DNA of 58,655 nucleotides, taken from the IMG/VR virus record IMGVR_UViG_3300037070_005559, positions 1-58,655 of that record; one strand, given 5' to 3'. Position 1 is the stretch's first letter. Each line of letters begins with the position of its first letter. The notes below the pieces were generated by a model. It was not told the DNA's origin. It saw only the letters and a list, made by a program, of their open reading frames with translations, and did not search any database. Made by a program: the position numbers and the translations under genes. The DNA is from a virus. Of the stretch, positions 19,170 to 49,243 are shown one piece after another.

Positions 19170-19171
19170 AA

Positions 19172-19450: not shown

Positions 19451-20036
19451 CTGCTTTTAGGGCAGCAGCAGCAATGGATTCCAATGTCGCCCCGTGCTTT
19501 AACTCTTCTTGTCTCAACTGTCGCGTGGACACAAGAGCTACCGGATACGGAATGGTTTCTTCATTGCTGGCCAATTGCCATCCGATGAAGTCGTGAGACT
19601 CTTCGCTAATCTCCGATGCTGTTTTGCCTCGGTGAGCCTCAACAACCTTGTCCATCATATCGATCTCATGTGCCGAAAACAAATCTAAATTCGGTTTCCG
19701 AAGTCCGACGGTGCGATTCTGGGTGAACCCAAAATATTCCGCTCGATCAATTCTTATGTCGCCGCTCCTTATCATCTGCTTGCTCACGGGGAGCCATCTT
19801 CGCGGCGCTGGTCCATTGCCAAGTCTAAAATAACTTTGGCCGGTGATGGCTTGTCCGAAATTGAGATATGCTAAAAAGTCGCAATAAAACAAAAGCTTGT
19901 TTTGCTTTGTCGCGCCAAATGTTTCATCCCCGCGACACTTCTCGGCGAGATAGAGCACAGCCTCACGCAGTTTTGCATCCTGCACTTCACTCTTTAGCGG
20001 CTGATGTATCTTTCGTAGCGCCATAACTCGTTCCAC
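19413..20036 (-). CDS. Panacea (DUF4065 / SocA-like) domain antitoxin
   Basis: KQNKLLFYCDFLAYLNFGQAITGQSYFRLGNGPAP matches the KLLYyaD...G..iTG..Y....GPv signature. GTG at 20036 or ATG at 20024. Confidence 0.7.
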   Translation of the reverse strand: MERVMALRKIHQPLKSEVQDAKLREAVLYLAEKCRGDETFGATKQNKLLFYCDFLAYLNFGQAITGQSYFRLGNGPAPRRWLPVSKQMIRSGDIRIDRAEYFGFTQNRTVGLRKPNLDLFSAHEIDMMDKVVEAHRGKTASEISEESHDFIGWQLASNEETIPYPVALVSTRQLRQEELKHGATLESIAAAALKADASALKDCSLRA

Positions 20037-20055
20037 GGCACGCTACCACAGCAAC

Positions 20056-20070
20056 ATTGTTGCCGCAACA
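20056..20070. promoter_or_regulatory. 15-bp perfect palindrome upstream of the antitoxin gene (candidate operator)
   Basis: TTGTTGC-c-GCAACAA, read directly, 20-34 nt upstream of the GTG at 20036. Confidence 0.45.
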
Positions 20071-20141
20071 AGGAGTTATTGGGGTTTTCCACCACTTTTC
20101 CGGCCCCTTTTAATCAGTCAATCATAGAAGTTTGCCTTGAT

Positions 20142-21152: not shown

Positions 21153-21186
21153 GGGCACAGACTACCATGGGGCTAACCTTTGTCAA
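21153..21186 (-). promoter_or_regulatory. Promoter-like element for a leaderless transposase transcript
   Basis: Minus strand reads TTGACA-aaggttagccccatgg-TAGTCT-gtgccc-ATG(21152). The -35 box overlaps the HNH stop codon. Confidence 0.45.
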
Positions 21187-21587
21187 GTGCATACTCCCGC
21201 TATTTTTGATCTTACGTGACCACGCAGCCTTTTGAGCACGCTATCAGTAAAAATGATTCCGTGTTTTTGAGCGATGTGGATTTTGTGATGGCATTTACGG
21301 CAAAGGGTGATGCAGTGTCTTGCCTGAGTTTCCCAAACGTTCTTTGGGTATTCCTTGTGATGAACGTCGTTTGATAAATTGAACGCATCACATAGAAAGC
21401 ATTTCGCACCATCGCGAGCCAGAACCTCCGCCCGCACGGTCTGCCACTGCTCAGACTTCAGGTATCCGAACCTATAAGCGTGTTTACCTGCTATGCTCAC
21501 ACCAACGTCAACATCGGCTTCCGACAGCACTCGCAAGCGCATCTCGACGACCACGCGTGATGAAACGCCCGACATCTGCGGCACCAA
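21183..21587 (-). CDS. HNH-type endonuclease-like protein (134 aa)
   Basis: WQTVRAEVLARDGAKCFLCD...VHHKEY...LCRKCHHKIH. Confidence 0.65.
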   Translation of the reverse strand: MVPQMSGVSSRVVVEMRLRVLSEADVDVGVSIAGKHAYRFGYLKSEQWQTVRAEVLARDGAKCFLCDAFNLSNDVHHKEYPKNVWETQARHCITLCRKCHHKIHIAQKHGIIFTDSVLKRLRGHVRSKIAGVCT

Positions 21588-23637: not shown

Positions 23638-23673
23638 TTCCCAAGTTAATAACTAACACCCGTCAGGTGTCAA
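23638..23673 (-). promoter_or_regulatory. Promoter-like element after the portal gene
   Basis: Minus strand reads TTGACA (23673-23668, overlapping the portal stop)-cctgacgggtgttagt-TATTAA-cttgggaa-ATG(23637). Confidence 0.4.
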
Positions 23674-26362: not shown

Positions 26363-26902
26363 TTACCCATGCGGCGCGTAGAGCTTCGGCACTACCTCAT
26401 ACGGCACATAAAGTGGGTGCTCTGGAAATCCGTGCTTGGTTGTACGAAGGCAATGAGTCTTCACCCCGATTCCATTCAGCCACTGCAATACCGTCAGATC
26501 GCGATTCCTGTGCCTGCCGTTTACTCCCCAAGCCGCAATGACTATTGACGCTTGGGAGGAGCGCTGCAAGAGATGGTGATGGTTATCGCATCCTTCTGGC
26601 TCTGGATGCCGCCGCATGGATGCCGGAGATGTATCTCGAACCGCAAACAGGTTCGTCATGCAGAGCGCGCCGTATCCCCACCGCTTTGAAAATCCGATGC
26701 ACTTCCGGATTGTGGGATCATCCTTGGTTTCGTCGGCAGTGCTTGGATTGAGTCCGATGAACATCGCATAGCCATCGACTTTTGGAAGGTCGTCGCTGCA
26801 TCCGGTAATCGAGTCCACATCCCATTCCCGCCACAGCGTGTATCTATAAACGCGGTCAGGCGAAAGAATCGTCTGCCGACAACTTGTTGGCTCCGGATTC
26901 AC
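26363..26902 (-). CDS. DUF1643-family protein (179 aa)
   Basis: RVYRYTLWREW...MFIGLNPSTADETKDDPTIRKCIGFSKRWGYGALCMTNLFAVRDTSP...AAWG...TKHGFPEHPLY. Confidence 0.75.
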   Translation of the reverse strand: MNPEPTSCRQTILSPDRVYRYTLWREWDVDSITGCSDDLPKVDGYAMFIGLNPSTADETKDDPTIRKCIGFSKRWGYGALCMTNLFAVRDTSPASMRRHPEPEGCDNHHHLLQRSSQASIVIAAWGVNGRHRNRDLTVLQWLNGIGVKTHCLRTTKHGFPEHPLYVPYEVVPKLYAPHG

Positions 26903-28134
26903 AACCCCACAATCTCCACCCGCGGAACCGGGATAATGAACTTCCCACCCGCCTCAAGATACGGCCGCATTTTGTCCAGAATTTCCTCCCTGTAATTCCA
27001 AGCGAAAAGGATAACGTAATCCGGCATCCGTTTCATCAACTCCTCCTCCGCCACGACTGGAATGCTCGTGCCCGGAACCATTCGCCCAATCTTCTGTTCC
27101 GTGGTATCGGTCACGAACTCCAACATATTGTCCAACCCACAGGCGTTGATCCACACCGTGCCTTTGGCAGATGCTCCAAATCCAGCCACGCGATTACCCT
27201 CGGCCCGCAGCGAGATCACCATAGAACGCAAGTGGTGGATGAGGTCATTCGACTTGTTTTTGAAATCGTGCCACGCCTGTAATCCGGTGGTGGCCTCGGT
27301 TTCGAGAGCCACAAACTCATCGAAACTTTTGTCCGGTGGAATCGTGCTGTCATCGTGGCGCAACATCACCACGATTGACCCGCCGTGGATCGGATAGCGT
27401 TTAACTTTGTGGATATGCCAGTTGGTGTCTCCCAACAGCCAGTCCAGGGCTTTGATTGTGAGGTAGCTCAGGTGCTCTGAATAAATTTGGTCGAACTCGA
27501 CGCGGGAGAGTGTGTCCAACACGTATGGGACTTCGATGCAGACTAATGTGTGCTCGTCAGAAACGATGTCCAGCGCAGCGATGAACCCCTTCCAATCGTC
27601 GACGTGGCAGAAGCAGTGGCGGGCGATGATGGTTCGGGCATTTGCGGAATCGCGTAAGAAGGCTTTTGCATTTGCGGCCATGGCTTCACTCCACGTCCCG
27701 CATATCACATTAACCATACGCCCAAATGCTGAGTCGCAAAGATTGGGTGCTGGGTCTACTCCCACTACCCCATTCACAAAGCCGTTATTTTCAAGAAATT
27801 CTAAAAAGTGCCCATCGTTCGAACCAATCTCGATCACCGAACCAACTCCGTTTTCCTCCTTCATGTCGGCACACAGCTGCTTGAAGTGGTCAGCCATTGT
27901 CTGGCTGCGGCTGGTCGTGTACGGGTACGAGCCGTAAAGTATTTCCGGTCGCACCACCACGCTTAGTTGGGCCAGCGTGCAGCGTGGGCACAGGAGTATT
28001 TTCAGCGGCGCGTAGCCAGCGTGTTCGTCGTCCGGCCGTCGGAAGTCATTCGCAAGAGCAAAAATACCCATATCAAAGACTTCGGTGAGAGCACCCCATT
28101 GACACGCTCGGCAGACTTTGTGTTCAGTGTACAT
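26899..28134 (-). CDS. NDP-hexose C-methyltransferase-like enzyme (TylCIII type; 411 aa)
   Basis: N-terminal 4-Cys motif (CRAC...CPRC), SAM motif VIEIGSNDGHFLEFL, and a C-terminal domain with AGFGASAKG. Confidence 0.75.
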   Translation of the reverse strand: MYTEHKVCRACQWGALTEVFDMGIFALANDFRRPDDEHAGYAPLKILLCPRCTLAQLSVVVRPEILYGSYPYTTSRSQTMADHFKQLCADMKEENGVGSVIEIGSNDGHFLEFLENNGFVNGVVGVDPAPNLCDSAFGRMVNVICGTWSEAMAANAKAFLRDSANARTIIARHCFCHVDDWKGFIAALDIVSDEHTLVCIEVPYVLDTLSRVEFDQIYSEHLSYLTIKALDWLLGDTNWHIHKVKRYPIHGGSIVVMLRHDDSTIPPDKSFDEFVALETEATTGLQAWHDFKNKSNDLIHHLRSMVISLRAEGNRVAGFGASAKGTVWINACGLDNMLEFVTDTTEQKIGRMVPGTSIPVVAEEELMKRMPDYVILFAWNYREEILDKMRPYLEAGGKFIIPVPRVEIVGL

Positions 28135-28618
28135 AATGCTTTAGTGGGGGAGTCGTCAGGGCCTTCTCCAAAGACCAGCCTCGCTCTAGTCGCTGTTTCA
28201 CTAGCTTTCCGTCACCGCCTAAGCGCCTACACCAATCCCTCTCGACCATCCTTATGCCGTTCAATTCGTGCCATACATTCTTGCTGGTATTTCTATTTTG
28301 CTGTGCTGGTGTGGCCCAGATACAATTTTTTGGAGTGTAGCCTTTCGAGCTATCCTTCCTTTCTAGCGTCAGTCCATGACTCCAGGTGGGACCCATGTCT
28401 TTTAAAAAATTAGGAAACGAGTACAGCCATCGGTCGCAGACTTTTATGCCCTTGCCTCCGTATATCTTGTAGTCTCTTGATTTTCGCCTCCAACTAGCAT
28501 GGCAGCACCTTCCAATCATATTGGACCAGCAGTTATAGAGCGGATGTCTGTTAGGACTCGTTTTGCCGTATCCATGACGGTTATACGGCCTCTTTTTGGA
28601 TCTACCTTTATTCTTCAT
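28124..28618 (-). CDS. Homing-endonuclease-associated DNA-binding-like protein, paralog 1 (164 aa)
   Basis: HPLYNCWSNMIGRC...YKIYGGKGIKVCDRW..FPNFLKDMGP...LERKDSSKGYTPKNCIWAT. ATG at 28618 in an ATGA overlap. Paralog of 32469..33248. Confidence 0.55.
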   Translation of the reverse strand: MKNKGRSKKRPYNRHGYGKTSPNRHPLYNCWSNMIGRCCHASWRRKSRDYKIYGGKGIKVCDRWLYSFPNFLKDMGPTWSHGLTLERKDSSKGYTPKNCIWATPAQQNRNTSKNVWHELNGIRMVERDWCRRLGGDGKLVKQRLERGWSLEKALTTPPLKHYVH

Positions 28619-29445
28619 GGCCTCCAATAAGAAATCGCCTCATCAACCGCGTCCGTCACATGCCGAACCTTCACCCCGGCGTTGACCAGCTTCTGCACCG
28701 ACATCCTTGATCCGGTCGACGTGTAATTCGTTTCCACTTTTGGAATGGTTTCAATGATACCCGCCGACGCCATCATCGTCACAACCTCTCGCGCGGTGAT
28801 CTGGCCAACGCAACAACAATTGTAAATTCCGTATGGCGCACGATTCTTCCACAACTCCAACGCGTGGCGCACCATATCCCGGCGATGCGTCAACGAATTC
28901 AGGTGATTCCACACCGATGTAAATCCCGCCAGCTTCGTCAAATAATTACGCGGGCTATTGAATTCGTCGAACGGAAGCCGTATACGCAGGATATAGCTGT
29001 CGGGGTATTGCCCAACGAAGTTCTCAGCCAGCAGCTTTGATCCAACGTAGGTTCCGCAATAGCCGTCGAAGCCTCGGATTGGGGGATCAGTTTCATCGTA
29101 CTCGCGCAGCTCGTTGTAGAGGCAGGCTGTGGAGAGGTGCATCAGCGGGACAGACGCGCTCTCGCACGCGTTAGCCAACGTGGCAGGAAATATTGCGTTG
29201 GCCCTCAGTGTCTCACCCTTGTGATTGTCGCAGTTTGAGACTGAACCACCGGCCAAGTACGCCGCACAATTGATGACCAGAGTGGGGTTGGCGTCGGAAA
29301 TCAGTTGGCGCAGCTTTCCAAACTGCGTGTAATCTAATTCGGAACGGCGTACAGCGTGGAAGGCCATTCCGGTTGCGCGCATCTCGGATTGGAAGGCGGT
29401 GCCGAGGTAGCCTGAGCCGCCCAGAATAAGCAGTCCTGTTTTCAT
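28615..29445 (-). CDS. NAD(P)-dependent sugar epimerase/reductase (RmlD-like extended SDR; 276 aa)
   Basis: Rossmann motif LILGGSGYLG. Catalytic YVGSK (YxxxK). Confidence 0.75.
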   Translation of the reverse strand: MKTGLLILGGSGYLGTAFQSEMRATGMAFHAVRRSELDYTQFGKLRQLISDANPTLVINCAAYLAGGSVSNCDNHKGETLRANAIFPATLANACESASVPLMHLSTACLYNELREYDETDPPIRGFDGYCGTYVGSKLLAENFVGQYPDSYILRIRLPFDEFNSPRNYLTKLAGFTSVWNHLNSLTHRRDMVRHALELWKNRAPYGIYNCCCVGQITAREVVTMMASAGIIETIPKVETNYTSTGSRMSVQKLVNAGVKVRHVTDAVDEAISYWRP

Positions 29446-29864
29446 AGTTTATTTTCAGGAAGTTCAAAGTCAAGTGCGCCAAATGATCCGGAAAAGCATA
29501 CAAGCTCCTCTTTCCCAGATTCCTCAAAAATCATCATGCATTTCCATCGTGGCTGGCCTTTTGACTCTTCTTTGGTTGCTCTTCGCGTGATGGTGCCTAT
29601 CACGACTCCACCTTTGCTTACTTTCATACCGGGGAGAAGTTCCTCTGGGTCTATCAACTTCTTGGGATCACGCTCCATTCGGTTGCACCCAAAAATACTA
29701 GATACCAGAAACTTCCCTTCTAGATTTAACTGAACATAGGCGTCTCTCCACTCAATGGATTTGCTCGTAATCATTGGATGCACGCATTCTCCAAGCGGCC
29801 AAATCTTATTTGGACGATGATCTCCGGGTCGAAAATGAATGCAGGCAAAGCAATAGTTTATCAT
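29442..29864 (-). CDS. Hypothetical protein (140 aa)
   Basis: ATGA overlaps at both ends. Confidence 0.65.
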   Translation of the reverse strand: MINYCFACIHFRPGDHRPNKIWPLGECVHPMITSKSIEWRDAYVQLNLEGKFLVSSIFGCNRMERDPKKLIDPEELLPGMKVSKGGVVIGTITRRATKEESKGQPRWKCMMIFEESGKEELVCFSGSFGALDFELPENKL

Positions 29865-30469
29865 AACGCCTTACGAAACACGCAAAGTTCTCGACTGAAG
29901 TACATCGAGTCAATCCCCGCCCCAGCGTTGAGCGCGTCGATGTTGGATCGTAGCCAGTCAATGTGATTTGGGAATCCGGGTTTGAGAAAGATCGAGTTCT
30001 GGGAGTATGCGACTCCCAGATCCTCGATCGCATAAAAGCCACCGGGTCGCACGTGTGGCCACAGCGCGTTGAATGTGGTGATGATGTCGCTGTTAATGTG
30101 TGATCCATCATCAATGCAGATGTCCCAATCCACTCCGTAATCGGCGATGAAGCATTGCCAGAAAACTGGATCGCCTTGGTTGCCGGTGACGAAGGTGTAG
30201 CGGTCGTTCGTGCCGGGCGTGTCCCACGGATTTGTGTTCGACACGATGTCCACACCGAACACGCGTGCGGCAGGAAAATACTCCAGCCACCCCCGAATTG
30301 ACTCGCCGCCCCCAACTCCTACTTCTGCGATCTTCATCGGCTTGTCGCGCAGCTCTCCGAAGCACCGCTCGTAATGCTGGCAATAGCCTTTCGGTTTGGC
30401 GTAGGTGCGAGTAAACTGGCTGGCTTTGTCGCTGCCGTGAAAAATCATCAGGTCATCAAGCGTGCTCAT
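29861..30469 (-). CDS. Class I SAM-dependent methyltransferase (sugar O-methyltransferase-like; 202 aa)
   Basis: ATG at 30469 in an ATGA overlap with the radical SAM stop. HGSDKA..., IAEVGVGGGESI, ICIDDGSH. Confidence 0.65.
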   Translation of the reverse strand: MSTLDDLMIFHGSDKASQFTRTYAKPKGYCQHYERCFGELRDKPMKIAEVGVGGGESIRGWLEYFPAARVFGVDIVSNTNPWDTPGTNDRYTFVTGNQGDPVFWQCFIADYGVDWDICIDDGSHINSDIITTFNALWPHVRPGGFYAIEDLGVAYSQNSIFLKPGFPNHIDWLRSNIDALNAGAGIDSMYFSRELCVFRKAL

Positions 30470-31536
30470 ACAGGTGGCGTCCATTTCCTCGCGTCTGTCA
30501 GGTGAAAATAATAGCGCAGCTTGTAACGGCTGCACTGAAGACACACCGCGTGGCCCGTTCGCTTCTCAGTCATTTCATCCTGAGTCATGTCCAAATAGTT
30601 TCCGAGAACCAAGCGTCGGTCGGCCACGCACGCGCACATTTCCACCAAGCCATCGTGACGGATGAAGCAGAACATCCAGCCAATGGGGCATGTGGGTGGC
30701 GCTTCCAAGTGCGAGTACATCTCCCGAGATTTATCCGGAGGGATCACCACGCGTTTCATCGCGTCGATATACGTCTGACTGATAGGCGGCAGCATTGCGT
30801 TGTAATCCGGACGACCGGGTTGCACCTCGAACGGAACGGCTTCCGGATCGAGGCTGCGGTTGTATTGTATCGCGTTTTCCATCGAGATCGCACGCGCGTA
30901 GGAGGTGAAGAATTCTATCCCAAGCGATTCAGCGTATTCCTTCATCGGCTGAATCTCATGCTGGTTGTCGGTGTAAATATGGAAATTGACGGCGATTCTT
31001 ATTTTCGGATTGGCCCGTGCGTTGGCCTCCGAAATCAGCTTCATATTGGCCTTCACCTTTTCGATGTTGCCTCCAGCGTGACCGCGCTCGTAAATCTCTT
31101 GAGTGAAGCCGCTGAGAGAAATGATAATCATGTCCGGCTGGGCAGCCAATACTTCATCGAGTTTTCGAACGGAGTTCAGATTGGTCGACACCTGTGCATT
31201 CAGCCCGCGGCGCTTTACCGACGAAATGCACTCCGCAAGTCGTGGGTGAATCCAGGGCTCAGAATTTCCATAAAGCATGACCATCGCATTCGGATTCTCC
31301 GATTGGATTTTGTCGAGAATTCGCTCCATCAATTCAGGCTCCATAATTCCCGTCTGGTGGTCGTAGCCTTCGGGAACGCCTTTCGTGCAGGTTGGGCAAT
31401 GGAGGGAGCACAACGAATTGCATTCGAGGAAAAAGCGCCAGCTTTTCAGCTTCGTCTCTGCGATGGAGATCGCGCCTCCGCCCTGCCAGAATGGGATGCT
31501 GGCGTCGTCCATTGCTTTTTGGAGTTCGGGTGTCAT
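30466..31536 (-). CDS. Radical SAM enzyme with a Cys-rich C-terminal (SPASM/twitch-like) region (356 aa)
   Basis: CSLHCPTC (CxxxCxxC). C-terminal CPIGWMFC...MCACV...CLQC. Confidence 0.75.
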   Translation of the reverse strand: MTPELQKAMDDASIPFWQGGGAISIAETKLKSWRFFLECNSLCSLHCPTCTKGVPEGYDHQTGIMEPELMERILDKIQSENPNAMVMLYGNSEPWIHPRLAECISSVKRRGLNAQVSTNLNSVRKLDEVLAAQPDMIIISLSGFTQEIYERGHAGGNIEKVKANMKLISEANARANPKIRIAVNFHIYTDNQHEIQPMKEYAESLGIEFFTSYARAISMENAIQYNRSLDPEAVPFEVQPGRPDYNAMLPPISQTYIDAMKRVVIPPDKSREMYSHLEAPPTCPIGWMFCFIRHDGLVEMCACVADRRLVLGNYLDMTQDEMTEKRTGHAVCLQCSRYKLRYYFHLTDARKWTPPV

Positions 31537-31537
31537 G

Positions 31538-32221
31538 TCAAAACGGCAGTCTATCGCGATAGGCTTTTACGATTGGGCGGGGGCCATTTCCCCACGCCAC
31601 CTCTGCTTCGTAACGCGAGGACAGAGCGCCGATGCCATCTTGCTTGATTCGTTCGCGTAGGTAAAGGGATGGGAGTTTGCGAACAAAAGAGGCTTTGGTC
31701 CAGAGCCAATTTCCGGCCGGGATGTGTTGGCTTTGATCCCAACCCTGATCCCACATCCAGTGCATACAGGCGATGTCGTTGCCAGCCTCCAGATCAGCCA
31801 CACACTGACGCCAGTTGGTTATCAGGTCTTGGGTCATGGCGAGTCTCCACGGCTTGGCCACGTTCTCCCCATAGTGGGAGCCCGGCGCATGTGTGCTCCC
31901 CTTTTGATGCGCGTACAGGATGTAAGCCTCGCCTTCGATTTGGTGAGTGTGATCGAACAGCTTCATTATTGTGAGGTTTTCGCTGCGGCAGTCTGTACCG
32001 TGGTAAACGACTTCGGCTTTCGGTGGGAAGATGCTGCTCACGATACCCGCACTCTCGTCGGGTGATCCGTTGATGCACACGTGAAATTCACTGGCGGCGT
32101 CCAATAATCCACTGGATTTGAACGCCTCCATTTGTTCGCGCGCGATTGGCTCAGCACTTGGCAAATAGCGACCTTCGATTGCGAAGACTCCGTGGAGGTA
32201 GATTATGATTGGGGTTGTCAT
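31538..32221 (-). CDS. Hypothetical protein (227 aa)
   Basis: ATG at 32221 in an ATGA overlap. No motif recognised. Confidence 0.65.
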   Translation of the reverse strand: MTTPIIIYLHGVFAIEGRYLPSAEPIAREQMEAFKSSGLLDAASEFHVCINGSPDESAGIVSSIFPPKAEVVYHGTDCRSENLTIMKLFDHTHQIEGEAYILYAHQKGSTHAPGSHYGENVAKPWRLAMTQDLITNWRQCVADLEAGNDIACMHWMWDQGWDQSQHIPAGNWLWTKASFVRKLPSLYLRERIKQDGIGALSSRYEAEVAWGNGPRPIVKAYRDRLPF

Positions 32222-32472
32222 TTCTTCCAAAAATACTGTTGGGCGATTATCATGGCACAGTCGAAAAACGGAGCCTCTTCCATATCGCCATTAAAATGGC
32301 ATTCCATCAAGTCGAGTTCCAGCAAGGTTTTTACCATGATGCGCATTTTATCCTCTGAACTGAGTATGAATTCGACTGTATCAAATGGCTTCTTTAGACC
32401 GCCATCGGATATTTCGGCCATCAACTTTTTGATGAGCTTTTTCGCCGCCTTCTCTGCGTCTCGCTTTCTCAT
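32218..32472 (-). CDS. Hypothetical protein (84 aa)
   Basis: ATGA overlaps at both ends. Confidence 0.6.
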   Translation of the reverse strand: MRKRDAEKAAKKLIKKLMAEISDGGLKKPFDTVEFILSSEDKMRIMVKTLLELDLMECHFNGDMEEAPFFDCAMIIAQQYFWKK

Positions 32473-33248
32473 CGGAGTATTGTGACGCTACCGTTTGTGC
32501 CAACCCCTCCAGCCGGGGTTGAGAGGGCGCGCTCGATAGACCAGCCACGACCCAGACGAACGTAAATAATATCAGCGTTTCCTCCTATTTGCCGTGACCA
32601 TTCTCGCTTCGTTAGGGTTTTGCCGTTGAATGTGATGGGCTTGACGTTCCTCTTGTTCTGGTTTTGCTCATGTCGAGTAGCCCAACGGCAGTTCTTGGGA
32701 CAGTAGCCTTTGCTGTTGTTGATGCGCTCGATTTCAAGTCCGGGCTTATATGTCGGACCCATGTCCTTCAGAAAATTTACGAACTTTCGCCAGCGATGGC
32801 AGACGGTTATGCCGCGACCACCGTAGTTCTTGTAATCTATTGATGTTTTACATCGACATCGGCGGTTCATTCCTGTCCAGGTCTTATATAGTGGGTGCTC
32901 ATGACCACGCCTTGCGAGTCCGTGCGTGGTGTTTCGCTTTGATAGCATTTCACGAAACAGACATCCGCATGATCCGGTTAAACCCTTCCTTACATTTCTG
33001 AGAAGGATGTTTTTGAAGTTTCCGCATTCGCACTTGAATTTCCACAACTGACCGCCTTTCACCTCTATAAACCTGACTGCTGTGAGGCGATTGAATTTCT
33101 TTCCAACAAAGGCTTGAACTCTCGGGTCTTTTGGTCCAGTAATTTTGGCAGGCATACGATCAAGTGATTTTGATTTTATGTTCAGGGCCGGGAGGCGCGT
33201 CACGGCGTTCTCTCGGCTCGAATTATTTTGGAGTGACCTCTGAATCAT
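32469..33248 (-). CDS. Homing-endonuclease-associated DNA-binding-like protein, paralog 2 (259 aa)
   Basis: FNRLTAV...WKFKCECG...SCGC, then HPLYKTWTGMNRRC...YKNYGGRGITVCHRW..FVNFLKDMGP...IERINNSKGYCPKNCRWAT. Confidence 0.55.
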   Translation of the reverse strand: MIQRSLQNNSSRENAVTRLPALNIKSKSLDRMPAKITGPKDPRVQAFVGKKFNRLTAVRFIEVKGGQLWKFKCECGNFKNILLRNVRKGLTGSCGCLFREMLSKRNTTHGLARRGHEHPLYKTWTGMNRRCRCKTSIDYKNYGGRGITVCHRWRKFVNFLKDMGPTYKPGLEIERINNSKGYCPKNCRWATRHEQNQNKRNVKPITFNGKTLTKREWSRQIGGNADIIYVRLGRGWSIERALSTPAGGVGTNGSVTILR

Positions 33249-33260
33249 TGCAACTCCAAT

Positions 33261-33980
33261 CTACGGGGCGTGCCAGTACGGGGGCTTACAAAGGCGGTCG
33301 CCCACAAGAAGATTCTCTTGCTGATTCTGATGAAACCCGTCAGGCAGCGAATCGCAACTCTCAATCGGCACGATTCCGTTCCACCCAACGATGTAAGGCT
33401 GCATCCCCTGGCTAATAACCCACGAGGTGAAGCACGAGGGACCATGCTCGAAGTCATACCGCTTCCCACCCGTCCCGCCCTCAGTCACCGAATGCGGATA
33501 ACTCGCCATCAACGACGGATGGCACCAAAAGCCAGTTGTACGAACATGCGGGAACACATTCGACCGCGGATCACCCTGATTGCCGGTCGAACCATAAAGC
33601 GTGTTCCCCTTCTCCGCCACGACCTCGACCATGCGCGATAACCACCCGGGTTTTCGAAAGTACGCGTGACTTCCGAGGAACAGCATGAGGTCGCAGTCCA
33701 CCGTTCGCGCCGCCAATTGAAAGGCTCCGATGTCCCAGCCTGAGTTATCGTGGTCGATGAACGTCACGTTTGGCAGCGCGTTGAACAACGCTTTGGATGG
33801 GTCAGTGGCCGGCGCACCATTGCAGACGACAAGCGTATCGTGATCCATGCCGGGAGGATTTCGCTGGTAGGATGCTGCGAATTCGTGGGCCATTGGTGCG
33901 AATCCTTGATCTCCATTTAGGGGATAGCAATACACGATCGTGATTTTGATACGATCTGGGGTGATGAAGAAGCAACTCAT
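33261..33980 (-). CDS. Hypothetical protein, possibly glycosyltransferase-like (239 aa)
   Basis: FIDHDNSGWDIGAF segment. Sits in the sugar cluster. Function not verifiable by eye. Confidence 0.4.
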   Translation of the reverse strand: MSCFFITPDRIKITIVYCYPLNGDQGFAPMAHEFAASYQRNPPGMDHDTLVVCNGAPATDPSKALFNALPNVTFIDHDNSGWDIGAFQLAARTVDCDLMLFLGSHAYFRKPGWLSRMVEVVAEKGNTLYGSTGNQGDPRSNVFPHVRTTGFWCHPSLMASYPHSVTEGGTGGKRYDFEHGPSCFTSWVISQGMQPYIVGWNGIVPIESCDSLPDGFHQNQQENLLVGDRLCKPPYWHAP

Positions 33981-34450
33981 GGATATAGAATGAATGCCGC
34001 GATGTGTCGTCCGGTGCCTTTACCCTGGGATCCGTCCTCGATGGCGTGCCATCGCACGTCTCCGAGGTTGCGGACGTTTGCTGCTCCGGTGGCCTTGAGC
34101 ATCATCAGCACCCATTTGTCCACAGGATAGACGACGACGGAGAGTTTTCCTTTTAGTTGCTCCTCAATGGCTTTTCGCATCCACGCCGTAGGACCTTTCT
34201 TGCGTCCTTCATGGATGATGGATCCGAACGGCGGGTTGACGTAGTTGCGTTGCCCCCATTCGCACGTCAGACCGTCGAATCCTACGGGTACTGGATACGG
34301 ACGTGGATCGAAGTCGAAATTAAATTCCGAGTCGAGTTGAGCATACAGATCGGGCGGCGTAATCCAATAGTGCTTGCCGTCGTCACCGTTTCCGACGTGG
34401 AATTTGTTGTCGGCTGGCTGGAGTTGGCTTTGGTGAATGGCTGTCGTCAT
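33977..34450 (-). CDS. Phage-type DNA N6-adenine methyltransferase-like protein (157 aa)
   Basis: ATG at 34450 (ATGA overlap). WITPPDLYAQLDSEFNFDFDP...NYVNPPFGS. Confidence 0.65.
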   Translation of the reverse strand: MTTAIHQSQLQPADNKFHVGNGDDGKHYWITPPDLYAQLDSEFNFDFDPRPYPVPVGFDGLTCEWGQRNYVNPPFGSIIHEGRKKGPTAWMRKAIEEQLKGKLSVVVYPVDKWVLMMLKATGAANVRNLGDVRWHAIEDGSQGKGTGRHIAAFILYP

Positions 34451-35820
34451 TTCAACCAGCTTTCTGGAATCTCCGGAGTGTTGTAAATCGCCCCATCCCT
34501 TATCAGCCGACAATTAGGATTTTTAGGCCACTCCTCCACCACAACTCTCTTACACAACCCATGCGCGATCGCCAGCGGCAACGACTGATTCATCACGCAC
34601 ACGCGCGCGCCCGCTATCACGCGAGCGAGGTCCAGCGCGTTTTCAGTACGGTGCCACGGGATCTCAAACTTTGGAGCGCCGAATCCTTGGAAAATGTGAG
34701 CCTCCTCCTCAGTGCCGACGAATGCCATGAGATGACCCCACTTCTGAACGAGATCAAACCACGGGAAGCTCATGTTTTGATAACGAGGGGATCGAGCGAC
34801 TACGATGGGGCGATCAGGAATGACAATCGGATCATCCACCGTCAGCCACGGCATGTCCTCCGGCCAACTCACGCCAAACGCGTCGAGGTGGAGTTTTAGA
34901 ATGCTCCAGTTGTCTTTGGCTGTTCGCGCCTTCCACGGTTCTCGGAATTTGTTGAGGTCGTGGGTTGTGCTGAACGGAAGGCCGTGGGTGAATGACACTC
35001 GGTCGATGTAATCCTGGGCTTCGAGGAGTGGCTTGAGATTGTCCACCGCAGACGCAGGTCCACCCATGCGCGACCATCGGGAGTTGAGCGGGTACGGATA
35101 GCGGTTGTCGGTGGAGATGAATAGCACACCTCCGCCAATGGCCTTCATCACGGCTGCGGCGTACACGCAATCGCCAGCGTCGAGAGAGTGGTGAAATACA
35201 TTGGGCGAGTTCGGCACTCCCGGAGTCAACCAACTATGAAATCCAAACTCTCCGCCCCACCTGTTCGGAGTCCCCTGCCACTCTTTTGAGTTCCACGACC
35301 GTCCTTCCATCGCGAACAAGCGAGCGACCTCCGTTGGTGCGATTTTGAATCCTTTGGACTGAAGTTCAGCACGGTGGCGAATGCAGATCGCGCTATCCTC
35401 TGGATGATCGTCGGTCCAGCCGGCGTTTGCCATGTAGTCCAGTAGACGTTTGCTTCTGAGAGAAAATCCGCCGTTGCCTACCGCTCCACTCGGGTTGAAC
35501 GGTGCCCCGCAGTAGTCATGCTGGGTAAACATCGGCGTCCACTGCCGGCTGTTCAGCACGTAACCGTCGGCTTGGCAGACGAGCGCGAATGGCGTCTCAA
35601 CGTGCTTGGCCATTTGCTTGATGCAGAATCGGCTGTAGCCTTCTAGTCCTTCTATGCGCGGGATCTCAACCGCGTATGGAAGGCTCATGTCGTTCGTCAG
35701 CAGCTTAACCGCGCCGAATGAGCATTGTTCGAGACTGCGTTCGATTGCGACAGCAGCAAGACGGGCCTTGGGAGTTGTGTCTGCGGCCAGCAGAGTAATG
35801 TTAGGAAGGCTGAGTTTCAC
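34447..35820 (-). CDS. Two-domain glycosyltransferase-like protein (DUF5672-like N-terminus + GT9/heptosyltransferase-like C-terminus; 457 aa)
   Basis: N-terminus: ITLLAADT...YSRFCIKQM...LVCQADGYVLN..W...DYCGAPF....VGNGGFSLRSKRL. C-terminus: VARSPRYQN..FPW...FVGTEEE...LDLARVIAGARVCVMNQSLPLAIAHGL. Confidence 0.55.
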   Translation of the reverse strand: MKLSLPNITLLAADTTPKARLAAVAIERSLEQCSFGAVKLLTNDMSLPYAVEIPRIEGLEGYSRFCIKQMAKHVETPFALVCQADGYVLNSRQWTPMFTQHDYCGAPFNPSGAVGNGGFSLRSKRLLDYMANAGWTDDHPEDSAICIRHRAELQSKGFKIAPTEVARLFAMEGRSWNSKEWQGTPNRWGGEFGFHSWLTPGVPNSPNVFHHSLDAGDCVYAAAVMKAIGGGVLFISTDNRYPYPLNSRWSRMGGPASAVDNLKPLLEAQDYIDRVSFTHGLPFSTTHDLNKFREPWKARTAKDNWSILKLHLDAFGVSWPEDMPWLTVDDPIVIPDRPIVVARSPRYQNMSFPWFDLVQKWGHLMAFVGTEEEAHIFQGFGAPKFEIPWHRTENALDLARVIAGARVCVMNQSLPLAIAHGLCKRVVVEEWPKNPNCRLIRDGAIYNTPEIPESWLK

Positions 35821-36026
35821 ACCTCTTGCAGAATCGTACTATCGTAAATTGGAGGCAGGTCGACAATCACAGATTTGAACTGACAGATCGAGGACGGGAC
35901 TGGCTGGCGTTTACGAGTAATGCTGGGCCTGAAAGTTCCACGCTGCCACCGATGCCATGAGTCGCGCATCAACTCAAGTTGCCGCACCGTGACTTCGGTT
36001 TTAAGGAGTTCGATTAGAGCGATCAT
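35817..36026 (-). CDS. Hypothetical protein (69 aa)
   Basis: ATGA overlap with the downstream gene start. Confidence 0.55.
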   Translation of the reverse strand: MIALIELLKTEVTVRQLELMRDSWHRWQRGTFRPSITRKRQPVPSSICQFKSVIVDLPPIYDSTILQEV

Positions 36027-36033
36027 TTTGGAT

Positions 36034-36252
36034 TCACGGCGGAAGAATCAGCCACCGCTTGCAAATCTTATTCTGGAACCTCGACCCTTCGCATGAGGGG
36101 CAGCGCGAGACATGGAACACCCGCACCTTGGGTTCGTTCGGATCAAGTTGATTTTCCAAATCCATCACGATTGGCATGTCGCCCCTATAGGCCATCCATG
36201 CTGGGTCTGTAAACCACACTCCGGTTTCGCGTCCTGTTTTTGGATCGATCAC
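36034..36252 (-). CDS. Small protein with a CPSC motif (72 aa)
   Basis: GTG at 36252 in a GTGA overlap with the upstream stop. The track start at 36378 would overlap the upstream gene by 130 nt. Confidence 0.5.
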   Translation of the reverse strand: MIDPKTGRETGVWFTDPAWMAYRGDMPIVMDLENQLDPNEPKVRVFHVSRCPSCEGSRFQNKICKRWLILPP

Positions 36253-36911
36253 TTTGCTTCCTTCGTCACCCAACAATTCTCCCAAAGTCTGGCACGTGAA
36301 TCCGAGGGCATCTGCTTCACGATCTCCTCGATTTCCATGTGGACCTTCAGTCGCATCGGGCATAGGCAGGCGTCGCAAACTCCAAGTAATTCATCGTGCG
36401 AGGTCGTGAGTTTCAACTCCTTGAACCGATTCACCGCCTTGCGAATGGCTATCGAAATAGGCATGGTGAAAAACGCCGTAAAGTCCTTTGAATTGTTGTT
36501 CGGACAACTGACGCACACGCTCGCTCGTGACTCGGATAGTTCGGGTGCCACTGCTTTTGCCCCGCTGGTCAACCAATCGAAGTTTGCCTTAGCTCCGATT
36601 GCAACATTTTTCAGCCTTTGCCCCAGGTTGCGCTGGGGCAAGAATTTTGGGGGCGGTAAATCCCCTTCAGTGAGGTAAATCATGGCGCCCGGGATTTCGG
36701 CGACTCGGGCGGCGTTGACAGAATTGACCTCGTTCCGTATTGAGTCCATGTCGAGCGTGAGCCTGAATTTCGGGTTGGCCCGGCGATGCTTCTGAAGCTC
36801 TTGGCAGAGGAGTTCGAAATCCCAGTTCGAAAGCTCCCACCCCGACTCGGCCTGACGATAGTAGAAGCCGTTGGGTGGAGCTTGGGTGAGTGATTTAAGT
36901 TTCAGTGACAT
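36249..36911 (-). CDS. Hypothetical Cys-containing protein (220 aa)
   Basis: CVSCPNN...CDACLCP motifs. Confidence 0.65.
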   Translation of the reverse strand: MSLKLKSLTQAPPNGFYYRQAESGWELSNWDFELLCQELQKHRRANPKFRLTLDMDSIRNEVNSVNAARVAEIPGAMIYLTEGDLPPPKFLPQRNLGQRLKNVAIGAKANFDWLTSGAKAVAPELSESRASVCVSCPNNNSKDFTAFFTMPISIAIRKAVNRFKELKLTTSHDELLGVCDACLCPMRLKVHMEIEEIVKQMPSDSRARLWENCWVTKEAK

Positions 36912-37110: not shown

Positions 37111-37431
37111 TCACCCCAAAACCGCAATCACCTCATCCTCCGGCACCAGCAAATACGTCTTGCCGTCGAATTTCAGTTCCTCTCCCGCGAACTGTCGAAA
37201 GACCACGATCTGACCCGCCTTGAATTCACATGGAACGCGCGTACCAGCGTCCGACCAGCGTCCGGGTCCAACGGCTCTAATGCGACCTTGAGTGGGCTTG
37301 CCCTTCGCGCCTTCAGGAATGTGGAGGATGCTGCTCACAACCTCCTCCATCGGTTCAATGATGACGCGGTGGAAGGTTGGTGTTGGGAATGTCAGACCTT
37401 CGTTCAGGGCTACGAGTTTTCCGTCTTCCAT
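37111..37431 (-). CDS. groES: GroES (Cpn10)-like co-chaperonin (106 aa)
   Basis: HRVIIEP..EVVSSILHIPEGAKGKPTQGRIRAVGPGR....G...P.EFKAGQIVVF..FAGEELKFDGKTYLLVPEDEVIAVL aligns by eye along the whole GroES consensus. Confidence 0.8.
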   Translation of the reverse strand: MEDGKLVALNEGLTFPTPTFHRVIIEPMEEVVSSILHIPEGAKGKPTQGRIRAVGPGRWSDAGTRVPCEFKAGQIVVFRQFAGEELKFDGKTYLLVPEDEVIAVLG

Positions 37432-49238: not shown

Positions 49239-49243
49239 TACAT

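Follow-up and report, generated by a model that had tools for sequence, protein, structure and literature searches.

Mycobacteriophages use transferases of their own to glycosylate capsid and tail-tube subunits at the C-terminus (Freeman 2023, as relayed in PMC12619734 and PMC12363180), and Che8 gp110 and Corndog gp38 are reported to be essential capsid glycosyltransferases (PMC12363180). Virus-encoded transferases and sugar pathways are also in use in chloroviruses and mimiviruses (PMC9614988). Here we analysed a block of sugar-tailoring and glycosyltransferase genes in an uncultured podovirus-like phage; the window, that is, the whole 58,655-nt stretch of DNA, is its complete, circular genome (58.5 kb). 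Across a large clade of uncultured podovirus-like phages (~55 kb), a hypervariable glycosylation locus lies between the gene for a conserved Cys-rich protein (Cys220) and that for the portal, and we found that the block is one version of it.

Gene content of the block upstream of the portal gene

The ~10.5-kb block lies immediately upstream of the portal gene, and all genes between 26363 and 36911 are on the minus strand. The block and the virion genes discussed below are as follows.

15914–17563, minus: putative major capsid protein, 549 aa, candidate acceptor
23670–26063, minus: portal protein, podovirus type, 797 aa, right border of the variable locus
26363–26902, minus: DUF1643 protein
26899–28134, minus: NDP-hexose 3-C-methyltransferase (TylC3/TcaB9/MtmC family)
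28124–28618, minus: HNH homing endonuclease HNH1, paralogue of HNH2 (phrog_3377 5e-46; GC 0.473)
28615–29445, minus: RmlD/NRS-ER-like extended SDR
29442–29783, minus: 113-aa ORF (longest form 140 aa), low GC (0.444)
29861–30469, minus: MycE/TylE-like sugar O-methyltransferase (Methyltransf_24 type)
30466–31536, minus: radical SAM enzyme with a Cys-rich (SPASM/twitch-like) C-terminus
31538–32221, minus: DUF8361-family protein, 227–230 aa
32218–32472, minus: 84-aa ORF, low GC (0.431)
32469–33248, minus: HNH homing endonuclease HNH2, mobile passenger (phrog_374 1.2e-66, phrog_3377 1.1e-52)
33261–33980, minus: GT239, a 239-aa GT2-like (GT-A-like) protein, putative second transferase
33977–34450, minus: Dam-like N6-adenine DNA methyltransferase (NPPF motif)
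34447–35820, minus: two-domain glycosyltransferase, N-terminal DUF5672 (GT-A, glycogenin-like) and C-terminal GT9-like (GT-B)
35817–36026, minus: 69-aa ORF
36034–36252, minus: 72-aa ORF, as called in the public record
36249–36911, minus: Cys220, conserved Cys-rich 220-aa protein, left border of the variable locus

As the original prediction had described, the run is unbroken and mostly overlapping: of its 15 junctions, 9 are 4-nt start/stop overlaps, 3 overlap further, and no gap exceeds 77 nt. The genes thus make up one translationally coupled run. Promoter-like and terminator-like sites within it did not exceed their frequency in shuffled sequence. Upstream there is a GroES-like gene; genes for a scaffold-like protein and for the capsid candidate follow downstream.

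The sugar-tailoring families proposed by the original prediction were confirmed by profile searches. The C-methyltransferase, first described as TylCIII-type, matched MtmC (4rv9, 2.3e-77) and TcaB9 (3ndi, 9.3e-53) over the full length, as well as Pfam Methyltransf_13 (2e-12), Methyltransf_23 (2.6e-14) and Methyltransf_14 (7.5e-45), and has homologues with 39–50% identity in at least eight related loci. The extended SDR, which carries the motifs GGSGYLG and YVGSK, matched RmlD_sub_bind (Pfam, 7.8e-25) and, in the PDB, 3,5-epimerase/4-reductases and RmlD (4qqr, 1.8e-17; 1vl0, 1.2e-12; mimivirus UDP-L-rhamnose synthase 7jid, 2.4e-8), while its TIGR01214 score was 69.6 bits, under the cutoff of 224; its sequence suggests an NDP-4-keto-6-deoxyhexose reductase-like enzyme, possibly a 3,5-epimerase/4-reductase. 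The order SDR, C-methyltransferase, portal recurs in two other loci (L149 and L202). What had been called a class I methyltransferase could be refined to a MycE-like sugar O-methyltransferase (MycE 3ssm, 3.1e-25; TylE 8ia9, 7.8e-20; phrog_21658, 5.8e-22; Pfam match only weak), and its gene, when started at 30469, overlaps the radical SAM gene by 4 nt. MycE and TylE methylate a 6-deoxyhexose that is already attached. The radical SAM enzyme contains the CxxxCxxC motif and matched TIGR04317 (1.9e-21) and DesII (TIGR04426, 1.3e-9; PDB, 1.3e-3), with a Pfam Radical_SAM score slightly under threshold (5.5e-6).

The two-domain call for the DUF5672-GT9 protein was likewise sustained, by Pfam (DUF5672, 1.9e-14) and by an AF2 model (pLDDT 95.4, pTM 0.91) whose top Foldseek matches were GT9 enzymes; the PDB matches included GT9 3tov (1.4e-6), WaaC, the protein heptosyltransferase TibC, WaaF and glycogenin. 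The GT9-like similarity of the predicted fold is modest (TM 0.33–0.47) and does not tell protein-acting from LPS-acting relatives. More than 500 full-length homologues share 47 invariant columns, and the matches in BFVD came from giant viruses and uncultured phages, among which multidomain DUF5672 glycosyltransferases of this kind are common. GT239, singled out earlier as a possible second transferase by HDNSGWDIG, stands as a GT2-like candidate with a match slightly below threshold (Glycos_transf_2, 1.1e-4; a score of 22.7 bits where the cutoff is 23.3), and a profile search of PDB sequences gave no match. The protein at 31538–32221 had no match in the Pfam or PHROG libraries searched or in the PDB, and was assigned through a homologue (L004, 54% identity) with a precomputed PF27674 (DUF8361) match; it is perhaps a transferase.

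Four other genes of the run, those for the Dam-like protein, the DUF1643 protein and the two HNH endonucleases, are probably passengers outside the sugar pathway. Among the genes originally listed as unknowns, one is the DUF8361 gene and two encode HNH homing endonucleases, both with GC below that of their neighbours (HNH2, 0.488 versus ~0.54). The Dam-like protein (phrog_111, 2.7e-13; Pfam Dam 1e-4, sub-threshold) and the DUF1643 protein (Pfam 1.4e-42, phrog_3230 5.3e-49) keep their family assignments and probably lose their place in the sugar set; neither has a homologue in 117 portal-centred loci, and DUF1643 is unique to the window among 118. The Dam-like protein is probably an anti-restriction passenger; one related locus has a weak Dam-like match (27%/111 aa) immediately upstream of its Cys220 gene (L010), and another has a Dam gene at a different place on the opposite strand (L006). 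Literature mentions of DUF1643 are restricted to SCCmec elements and phages, and the family is common on mobile elements. The 72-aa ORF has no homologue in the related loci, and its long form (36034–36378) would overlap Cys220.

A hypervariable slot between Cys220 and the portal gene

The identity of the 797-aa protein as a portal was borne out by its predicted fold (AF2, pLDDT 74): the top 41 Foldseek matches were all portals, nearly all from short-tailed phages (SU10, 2.5e-9; GP4, LME-1, N4 and T7). We found 1257 homologues in metagenomes and none in GenBank phages. Cys220 matched no Pfam or PHROG family, yet its own family comprises 955 representatives at 50% clustering, and the protein, with six invariant cysteines (C133, C136, C179, C182, C184 and C213), probably binds zinc. 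Of 67 related metagenomic loci, 63 have a Cys220 homologue at most 10 kb upstream of the portal gene, and in 58 it is on the portal strand. The original prediction had regarded sugar genes midway through a structural operon as unusual; since the locus is present in 63/67 clade loci, this needs revision, the arrangement being the rule in the clade. Mycobacteriophage Corndog also carries a methyltransferase and glycosyltransferase cluster inside its structural operon.

The content of the slot varies widely. Across 71 loci it ranged from 0.7 to 10.2 kb and held 206 gene clusters, the version in the window being the longest found in this analysis. A glycosyltransferase was present in 43 of these loci and a methyltransferase in 35, and Pfam supported Glyco_tranf_2_4 and a GT9+GT2 fusion as additional transferases, and FkbM and a second Methyltransf_24 type as additional methyltransferases. 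Among the 67 loci, slots contained the MycE-like O-methyltransferase in 33, mostly adjoining the portal gene, GT239 in 29, every time on the portal strand, the DUF8361 protein in 26, usually after GT239, and the radical SAM gene in 10 (56–67% identity).

Proposed pathway and putative acceptor

The family assignments support the proposal that this is a sugar-tailoring and glycosyltransferase set, in a late operon beside the portal gene, that relies on a host-made NDP-4-keto-6-deoxyhexose. Pfam searches of window ORFs of at least 200 aa, with PHROGs alone for four replication/recombination genes, gave no match to RmlA/RmlB, ThyA, TET or C5-methyltransferase, nor did the public record's precomputed Pfam matches for the block region, in agreement with the RmlA/RmlB-like and thymidylate-synthase-like genes having been reported missing. 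In the pathway that we infer, from substrate to acceptor, the host-made intermediate would be methylated at C-3 by the TylC3/MtmC-type enzyme, and the SDR would reduce it, possibly with 3,5-epimerisation, to an NDP-3-C-methyl-6-deoxyhexose. Three to four soluble transferase domains (DUF5672, GT9-like and GT239, with the DUF8361 protein as a possible fourth) would then act in the cytoplasm, passing this sugar and host nucleotide sugars to a soluble macromolecule with no lipid carrier involved. The MycE-like enzyme would O-methylate the deoxyhexose once attached, the radical SAM enzyme would further modify sugar or acceptor, and the locus would be expressed late. The best reading, to which we give about an even chance, is that a C- and O-methylated deoxyhexose oligosaccharide is built in the cytoplasm on virion proteins.

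The putative acceptor is most likely a virion protein, either the C-terminal tail of the capsid candidate or another head or tail protein, on the circumstantial evidence that the block sits among head-morphogenesis genes and its enzymes are all soluble. The host envelope was also considered in the original prediction; no initiating lipid-carrier transferase, flippase, polymerase or export machinery was found, and the block proteins contain no transmembrane-like segment, the transferases among them being acidic or neutral. DNA is disfavoured in that no hydroxylated-base pathway was seen among the ORFs searched; phage clusters for DNA glycosylation, too, have been reported close to structural genes (bioRxiv 10.1101/2023.12.21.572611).

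The capsid candidate itself had no match in Pfam, PHROG or PDB searches and is a putative major capsid protein by synteny, downstream of the portal and scaffold-like protein, and by conservation, which among its top homologues (54–73% identity) is higher than for the portal or DUF5672 proteins. The Ser/Thr-rich C-terminal extension cited earlier in favour of a capsid acceptor is real (87 aa, 24% Ser+Thr versus 11% in the core), but the argument built on it is weakened, because tail-less relatives keep such loci and the association with the transferase follows phylogeny. Homologues fall into two length classes (~450–475 and ~535–580 aa), and the C-terminus is hypervariable over the clade, with tail types varying by subclade. 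The window-type tail (87–96 aa) occurred in 8 of 9 loci with DUF5672-GT9 and a complete capsid gene versus 2 of 34 without DUF5672-GT9, an association that tracks portal phylogeny and therefore may stem from a single ancestry event. Furthermore, the tail occurs without DUF5672-GT9 in L218 and L107, DUF5672-GT9 accompanies a different tail type in L223, and a DUF5672-GT2 fusion accompanies a tail-less 461-aa capsid candidate in L005. Two subclades without any capsid tail still have gene-rich slots, with a Pfam-supported glycosyltransferase in some loci only.

If a virion protein is the acceptor, the particles would carry a variable, methylated glycan coat. Mycobacteriophage transferases acting on capsid and tail-tube C-termini offer a precedent for this, as do the transferases and sugar pathways encoded by chloroviruses and mimiviruses.

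Enzyme content of the island

The original prediction described the block from 26363 to 36911 as an unbroken run of minus-strand genes. We found that all genes in it do lie on the minus strand, with 4-nt overlaps at nine of the fifteen junctions, and that promoter-like and terminator-like sites in the run were not above shuffled expectation. Searches against Pfam, PDB and predicted folds largely upheld the earlier family calls, and Pfam and PHROG did the same for the Dam-like and DUF1643 proteins. Two genes that had been left among several unknowns are instead paralogous HNH homing endonucleases. The assigned genes, together with that of the portal, are listed here:

23670-26063, minus strand, portal (797 aa)
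26363-26902, minus strand, DUF1643 protein
26899-28134, minus strand, C-methyltransferase (411 aa)
28124-28618, minus strand, HNH homing endonuclease
28615-29445, minus strand, extended SDR (276 aa)
29861-30469, minus strand, O-methyltransferase
30466-31536, minus strand, radical SAM protein
31538-32221, minus strand, DUF8361 protein
32469-33248, minus strand, HNH homing endonuclease
33261-33980, minus strand, GT239, a candidate transferase with the motif HDNSGWDIG
33977-34450, minus strand, Dam-like methyltransferase of the N6-adenine type
34447-35820, minus strand, DUF5672-GT9, a two-domain transferase (457 aa)
36249-36911, minus strand, Cys220, a Cys-rich protein (220 aa)

The C-methyltransferase was found to contain all three Pfam domains of the sugar C-methyltransferase family, namely the zinc domain (PF08421 Methyltransf_13, 2e-12, residues 8-67) with the four cysteines of CRAC...CPRC, a class I SAM domain (PF13489, 2.6e-14) and Methyltransf_14 (PF08484, 7.5e-45). 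It aligned end to end with MtmC (4rv9, 2.3e-77 over residues 7-409) and with TcaB9 (9.3e-53). Judged by its sequence, it is a member of the NDP-hexose 3-C-methyltransferase family (TylC3/TcaB9/MtmC), with predicted methylation of NDP-4-keto-(deoxy)hexose at C-3. The SDR showed the GGSGYLG (GxxGxxG) and YVGSK (YxxxK) motifs and the RmlD substrate-binding domain (PF04321, 7.8e-25), and its best solved relatives, with 4qqr (1.8e-17) and 1vl0 (1.2e-12) among the PDB matches, were a plant 3,5-epimerase/4-reductase, RmlD enzymes and the mimivirus UDP-L-rhamnose synthase. Its TIGR01214 score of 69.6 bits was far under the equivalog cutoff of 224, indicating that the enzyme is RmlD-like and not an RmlD orthologue. 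A Ser-Thr-Ala-Cys motif, which we take to be common to bifunctional NRS/ER enzymes, suggests that 3,5-epimerisation may also occur.

The catalytic domain of the O-methyltransferase (202-227 aa) matched MycE (3ssm, 3.1e-25, query residues 23-180 against MycE 175-329) and TylE (8ia9, 7.8e-20). The protein aligned to the C-terminal half of MycE and lacked its N-terminal auxiliary domain of ~170 aa, and its Pfam Methyltransf_24 score of 22.1 bits was under the cutoff of 26.3. Both MycE and TylE O-methylate a 6-deoxyhexose that is already on its acceptor. In the radical SAM protein the CSLHCPTC (CxxxCxxC) motif was present, PF04055 scored 27.1 bits against a cutoff of 29.5, and TIGR04317 matched at 1.9e-21, covering the N-terminal 175 residues only. 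Its family matches were SPASM-type maturases and, weakly, the sugar enzyme DesII; a Cys cluster, putatively SPASM/twitch-like, is visible at its C-terminus.

The N-terminal half of DUF5672-GT9 scored 54.1 bits against PF18922 (cutoff 24.4, residues 56-175) and had the glycogenin GT8 fold among its matches. When the AF2 model (pLDDT 95.4, 44 homologues) was searched with Foldseek, the top PDB matches were GT9 enzymes, including 3tov (1.4e-6), WaaC (2.2e-5), the protein heptosyltransferase TibC (8e-5) and WaaF (1.5e-4), at TM values of only 0.33-0.47, and its BFVD matches were multidomain transferases with DUF5672, encoded by giant viruses and uncultured phages. There was no PF01075 match at E<0.01 and no PDB sequence match with the 44-sequence profile. 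In this model the C-terminal half is GT9-like at the level of fold, and we do not class it as GT9. The GT2 Pfam score of GT239 was just below threshold. Profile-profile comparison revealed no relation of GT239, the DUF8361 protein or u478, a protein family of related loci, to DUF5672, nor of GT239 to DUF8361, and DUF8361 and u478 were therefore not called transferases. Searches of PDB by sequence and profile gave no match for the portal, DUF5672-GT9, GT239, DUF8361 or the 549-aa capsid candidate, and the portal and DUF5672-GT9 were identified by fold search only.

The island proteins contained no transmembrane-like segment (maximum 19-residue Kyte-Doolittle hydropathy ≤1.72), its transferases were acidic or neutral, and no Pfam family of a membrane transferase, an initiating lipid-carrier transferase, a flippase, a polymerase or a ligase was found. 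RmlA/RmlB-type enzymes were not found among the scanned window ORFs. The biochemical part of the original interpretation, sugar tailoring followed by transfer, is supported. We propose that a host NDP-4-keto-6-deoxyhexose would be methylated at C-3 and then reduced to an NDP-3-C-methyl-6-deoxyhexose, that three to four soluble transferase domains would assemble a short glycan straight onto a macromolecule that is itself soluble, and that the MycE-like enzyme would O-methylate the deoxyhexose once it is attached; the radical SAM enzyme may contribute a further modification.

The DUF1643, Dam-like and HNH genes are best read as passengers. Neither DUF1643 nor Dam had a homologue in 117 portal-centred loci of relatives (elsewhere, a weak Dam-like match lies just upstream of the Cys220 gene in L010, and L006 has a Dam gene at another place). 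Both HNH genes and two small ORFs have a GC content distinctly below that of the surrounding enzyme genes (0.47-0.49 for HNH). At least four HNH-type endonuclease genes occur in the 58.5-kb genome (28124-28618, 32469-33248, 21183-21587 and 54383-55000), and HNH genes recur between the Cys220 and portal genes, an interval termed the slot, in at least 12 related loci.

A hypervariable locus in an uncultured phage clade

The first and last 102 nt of the window form an exact terminal direct repeat (1-102 = 58554-58655), indicating that it is a closed assembly, circular or circularly permuted, of a 58,553-bp genome. The same contig is contained in NCBI (GCA_025450795.1, JANRHI010023000.1) and JGI. 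It carries phage replication and recombination genes (RecT, exonuclease and primase/helicase) and a late operon that forms a single long minus-strand run from ~49.2 kb to 12.3 kb; tRNA genes were absent from the window, and no integrase was found among its scanned ORFs. GenBank phages gave no match to the island DNA by megablast or to the portal and scaffold proteins by tblastn, indicating a clade without a cultured relative, and no description of the clade or the locus was found in the literature searched. Homologues in metagenomes numbered 1,257 for the portal, 811 for the capsid candidate and over 500 for the two-domain transferase; contigs of 52-58 kb carry many of them, and the portal homologues came from soil, peat, rhizosphere, groundwater and lake. 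The earlier portal call was confirmed by the AF2 model (pLDDT 74), whose top 41 PDB fold matches were all portals, nearly all of short-tailed phages (SU10, GP4, LME-1, N4 and T7). The window belongs to a phage clade that is large and uncultured and whose portal is of the podovirus type. A single-sequence portal scan of IMG/VR gave no match, and IMG/VR relatives were recovered by alignment-based scans. Host bins disagreed, with portal homologues on Armatimonadota and Pedosphaera (Verrucomicrobiota) contigs and a capsid homologue on Terracidiphilus (Acidobacteriota); the MAG-binned clade contigs are L089 (JBAXBU010000032.1), L090 (JAQGOT010000648.1) and P0352. These inconsistent assignments are probably binning artefacts, and host assignment is unreliable.

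The locus was compared across 117 non-redundant loci centred on portal homologues, drawn from IMG/VR and JGI metagenomes and searched with iterated profiles of the window's proteins; counts out of 67 refer to the loci whose upstream sequence, measured from the portal, is 8 kb or longer. Of these, 63 had a Cys220 homologue upstream and within 10 kb of the portal, in 58 cases on the portal strand. The interval between the Cys220 and portal genes ranged from 0.7 to 10.2 kb (median 4.4 kb), the window's being the longest in the sample. In 71 loci, the 447 slot ORFs fell into 206 clusters, 156 of which were singletons. The MycE-like O-methyltransferase occurred in the slot of 33/67 loci, GT239 in 29, the DUF8361 protein in 26, DUF5672-GT9 in 15, the radical SAM enzyme in 10, C-methyltransferase homologues in 8 and the SDR in 3, and the order SDR, C-methyltransferase, portal was repeated in L149 and L202. 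The slots of relatives also held families that the window does not have, among them Glyco_tranf_2_4 (13 loci), a protein combining GT9 and GT2 domains (GT9+GT2, 7 loci), an FkbM methyltransferase, another type of Methyltransf_24 and further HNH genes. The island coordinates coincide exactly with the allele that this phage has of a hypervariable glycosylation locus found across the clade, and the window carries the most elaborate allele of the sample, with branched-chain sugar synthesis. The placement of such genes amid virion genes, at first regarded as unusual, is now better described as a locus conserved beside the portal gene across a large clade.

Cys220 consists of two conserved domains joined by a variable linker rich in Pro, Ser, Thr and Ala, with six invariant cysteines (CxxC, CxxCxC, C-W); its family comprises 955 representatives at 50% clustering, for which no annotation was found. 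A 907-aa ORF in L218 matches the Cys220 profile. In a distant relative, L005 (JGI 3300075322), DUF5672-GT9 is fused to a GT2 domain (10001-12247, 748 aa), and the genes of the portal and the capsid candidate are on the other strand, indicating that the locus architecture is not universal.

Collectively, an abundant uncultured clade (>1,200 portal homologues) keeps a glycosylation locus at a fixed portal-side position, and the gene content of this locus turns over as fast as that of a bacterial O-antigen cluster. Some members, including the window, have enzymes for rare branched-chain methylated deoxysugars. For glycoengineering, the locus would offer a compact set of sugar-tailoring enzymes and of soluble transferases that work independently of lipid.

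Possible acceptors of the predicted glycan

Upstream of the island lie a GroES-like gene, small ORFs and a gene for a 1,473-aa protein without an assigned fold; downstream of the portal come a 413-aa scaffold-like protein rich in Pro, Ala, Lys and Glu, then a mobile insertion, then the 549-aa capsid candidate. These and other features outside the island are:

37111-37431, minus strand, GroES/Cpn10-like co-chaperonin (1.3e-19), two genes upstream of Cys220
18056-21587, mobile/defence insertion between the scaffold-like gene and the capsid candidate, splitting the head module
21183-21587, HNH endonuclease in the insertion
20142-21158, IS1595-family transposase
19413-20036, SocA_Panacea protein
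18056-19018, BstA_C protein
15914-17563, minus strand, capsid candidate (549 aa)
13636-15570, minus strand, Cys-rich protein (644 aa, 23 Cys)
49138-51159, plus strand, TerL-like protein (673 aa), recognized by motifs only, with no Pfam or PHROG match

Homologues of the GroES-like protein were present in 29 related loci, with no constant position or strand, and the insertion cargo (HNH, IS1595, SocA_Panacea and BstA_C) was also seen in two near-identical Logan contigs, L002 and L003. The 673-aa protein has Walker A-like (GPASSWKSGT) and Walker B-like (VWCVAEE) motifs and nuclease Asp motifs (MCDASYGGGDR and SPDLADM), and by these it is probably a TerL of high divergence, whose gene points away from the late operon. 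A 478-aa slot protein of relatives was considered as terminase, with Cys220 as small subunit, and was rejected, as it has neither Walker motifs nor a window homologue. The 644-aa protein, which likely serves as a tail fibre or in receptor binding, has about four copies of the repeat C...C(I/L)P.G...LIYL in its N-terminal part and one hydrophobic segment; its C-terminal half is Ser/Thr-rich and LRR-like with a weak BspA LRR_5 match, and a 49-nt imperfect direct repeat lies in its gene region at 13982 and 14123. Many relatives have, directly after the portal, a conserved protein of ~430 aa that is ATP-grasp-like by eye and has no counterpart in the window (L004 18417-19715; L006 18917-20221; L007 15622-16911; L008 12804-14108).

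The 549-aa protein occupies the position where a capsid gene is expected and is among the most conserved of the clade. The 120 homologues listed show 54-73% identity to it, and the corresponding ranges are 46-74% (portal) and 47-68% (DUF5672 protein). It had no Pfam, PHROG or PDB match, and a PHROG scan of 40 homologues was also empty. We infer that it is probably the major capsid protein. Its database homologues fall into two length classes (~450-475 aa and ~535-580 aa), and its C-terminus is hypervariable in the clade, with four states: none, a 21-48-aa Pro-rich tail, a 54-75-aa Pro/Thr/Ser-rich tail and an 87-96-aa Cys-containing tail. The window's tail is of the last type (87 codons, 15914-16174), with 24% Ser+Thr versus 11% in the core. 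N-glycosylation sequons in this tail were discarded as candidates, not being conserved among relatives.

The best-supported candidate acceptor is a virion protein. This is favoured by the fixed position of the locus among head-morphogenesis genes (GroES-like, portal, scaffold and capsid candidate), by its late co-transcription, by a scheme in which no membrane machinery is needed, and by precedent in mycobacteriophages and giant viruses. The 87-96-aa tail was present in 8 of the 9 loci with DUF5672-GT9 and a complete capsid gene, versus 2 of the 34 without DUF5672-GT9. In the portal tree, capsid tail type and transferase content both follow subclades, exceptions occur both ways (L218, L107, L223 and L005), and two subclades have no capsid tail and keep gene-rich slots, with a Pfam-supported glycosyltransferase in only some loci; the association was therefore given little weight. 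An apparent rise of capsid length with transferase content, and with it the rule that loci without a transferase have no capsid tail, failed, as Pfam annotation of further slot families revealed transferases such as GT9+GT2 and Glyco_tranf_2_4 in tail-less loci too. The acceptor could equally be a virion protein other than the capsid candidate.

With a virion acceptor, the locus would be a phage 'serotype' locus that diversifies the glycan coat of the particle, as O-antigen loci do for bacterial surfaces. Environmental phage particles would then bear diverse, strain-specific glycan coats, and adsorption, aggregation, grazing, decay and recognition by host defences would be affected. To our knowledge, actinobacteriophages are the only phages for which experiments have shown that phage-encoded enzymes glycosylate the virion, which in their case shields particles from antibodies.

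Remodelling of the host envelope is disfavoured, and we consider it unlikely. The enzymes would here alter the LPS core or O-antigen, the capsule or the S-layer of the infected or lysogenised cell, blocking superinfection or the sticking of progeny to debris. GT9 enzymes are classically LPS-core heptosyltransferases, and 6-deoxyhexoses with C-methyl or O-methyl groups are a typical feature of glycans on bacterial surfaces; cyanophages also carry large NDP-sugar and transferase clusters that include DUF5672 proteins (14 kb in S-H68), and prophage-style cargo is present in the genome (BstA_C, SocA_Panacea and the IS1595 transposase). However, the lack of transmembrane-like segments and of any membrane-anchored transferase, flippase, polymerase or ligase in the island does not fit this reading, nor does its location in a late head-morphogenesis operon, away from integrase or early genes, the scanned ORFs having yielded no integrase. 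A portal-adjacent position kept in 63/67 loci would also be unexpected of a moron.

Glycosylation of DNA is a serious alternative to a virion acceptor, and in our estimate a distinctly improbable one. In this case the transferases would build a glycan on phage DNA bases late, before packaging, as a means of evading restriction or CRISPR, and the Dam-like, DUF1643 and radical SAM proteins would belong to the DNA chemistry. In phages, transferases akin to enzymes of LPS and teichoic-acid synthesis decorate 5hmC with hexose, HexNAc and heptose, and their clusters are reported to lie near structural and defence genes (bioRxiv 10.1101/2023.12.21.572611); arabinosylated 5-hydroxycytosine occurs in RB69 and DLP3 (PMC13326640). 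A DNA methyltransferase and several ORFs without assigned function lie within the island, and an arms race with restriction systems would likewise be in keeping with how diverse the locus is. However, the known routes all start from a hydroxylated base, for which they need either a ThyA homologue or 5mYOX/TET, the latter sometimes together with a C5-methyltransferase, and none of these had a Pfam or PHROG match among the scanned window ORFs of ≥200 aa, in agreement with the earlier remark that no hydroxymethylase is visible. Phage DNA polymerase and dNTP-pool enzymes were not detected either, making a pre-replicative route unlikely. The DNA methyltransferase of the island belongs to the N6-adenine type and has no counterpart in the 117 portal-centred loci, the fold matches were GT9 and GT8 rather than T4 alpha/beta-GT, JGT or TarP, and the transferases are not basic. 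We know of no precedent in DNA glycans for a MycE-like O-methyltransferase or a 3-C-methyltransferase. There is a very slender chance that a branched, C- and O-methylated deoxyhexose glycan is built on phage DNA without a hydroxylated base made by ThyA or TET; radical SAM chemistry could activate the base, and Cys220 or DUF8361 could be new DNA-handling components. If true, this would be a new class of DNA hypermodification, spread in an abundant soil and freshwater phage clade.

A non-structural or small acceptor, be it a host cytoplasmic protein (a takeover effector), Cys220 as glycan carrier or a small-molecule glycoside, is very doubtful, and so is the alternative that the radical SAM/SPASM enzyme acts on a protein and not on a sugar. 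In favour of this group, Cys220 is the most constant partner of the slot (63/67 loci) with its Pro/Ser/Thr/Ala-rich linker, the best family matches of the radical SAM protein are SPASM-type protein and cofactor maturases, and MtmC, TcaB9 and MycE are natural-product pathway enzymes. Against it, the genome has no scaffold-biosynthesis gene (PKS, NRPS or aglycone), the late-operon position speaks against takeover effectors, and Cys220 had no Pfam or PHROG match.

Comparison with known systems

Several known systems share parts of this gene set. Gtr-type and Wzx/Wzy-dependent seroconversion modules differ from the island, in which their membrane transferase, flippase and polymerase were not found. 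Phage DNA-glycosylation clusters (T4 alpha/beta-GT; 5mYOX- and ThyS-linked, bioRxiv 10.1101/2023.12.21.572611; arabinosyl-5hoC, PMC13326640) share with the island phage GT-A/GT-B enzymes derived from LPS or teichoic-acid enzymes, sometimes near structural genes and with accessory sugar enzymes, whereas the window has no detectable ThyA homologue, 5mYOX/TET or C5-methyltransferase, and its folds match GT9/GT8 and not T4 beta-GT, JGT or TarP. Nucleotide-sugar clusters of cyanophages and huge phages, such as those of Synechococcus phage S-H68 and of an uncultured huge phage (LR756502), combine DUF5672 with NDP-sugar dehydratases, epimerases and C-methyltransferase homologues, but they include RmlB/RmlC-type enzymes of their own, count as auxiliary metabolic genes and are not tied to a conserved portal-side position.

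Related chemistry is seen in actinomycete antibiotic deoxysugar pathways for branched-chain sugars (MtmC, TcaB9, TylC3; 4-ketoreductases; MycE, TylE). The window's C-methyltransferase matches theirs from end to end, zinc domain included, the window has an RmlD-type reductase as well, and the catalytic domain of the O-methyltransferase matches MycE and TylE. In contrast, the window's genes stand in a phage late operon and are accompanied by no aglycone pathway, the O-methyltransferase is without the MycE N-terminal auxiliary domain, and the SDR is far under the RmlD equivalog cutoff. Giant viruses encode multidomain transferases (PBCV-1 A064R and A111/114R) and UDP-L-rhamnose and viosamine pathways (mimivirus; PMC9614988). 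They share with the window multidomain GT-A/GT-B transferases, methyltransferases and nucleotide-sugar tailoring, theirs acting in the cytoplasm on capsid proteins or fibrils; DUF5672 is frequent in their transferases, and the window's SDR resembles the mimivirus UDP-L-rhamnose synthase. The window differs as a bacterial virus with a 58.5-kb genome and in having no RmlA/RmlB-type first-step enzymes, indicating that the phage relies on host intermediates.

In mycobacteriophages Che8, Corndog and Myrna, glycans are found on C-terminal extensions of capsid and tail-tube subunits, as Freeman 2023 Cell Host Microbe 31:1216 is relayed in PMC12619734 and PMC12363180. The likeness lies in phage-encoded soluble transferases located with structural genes, here known from genes and predicted folds. 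In Corndog, an O-methyltransferase presumably also accompanies the glycosyltransferases, inside the structural operon. The window's lineage is unrelated, a soil and freshwater clade that is uncultured, with a podovirus-type portal and no GenBank phage match; its transferase families are DUF5672, GT9-like and GT239, the locus of its clade is hypervariable, and NDP-sugar tailoring (3-C-methyltransferase and 4-reductase) and a radical SAM enzyme are added. The virion glycans of mycobacteriophages have been demonstrated, and those of the window's phage are predicted. In summary, the locus resembles known virion-glycosylation systems in its logic and differs from them in lineage, enzyme families, variability and sugar chemistry.
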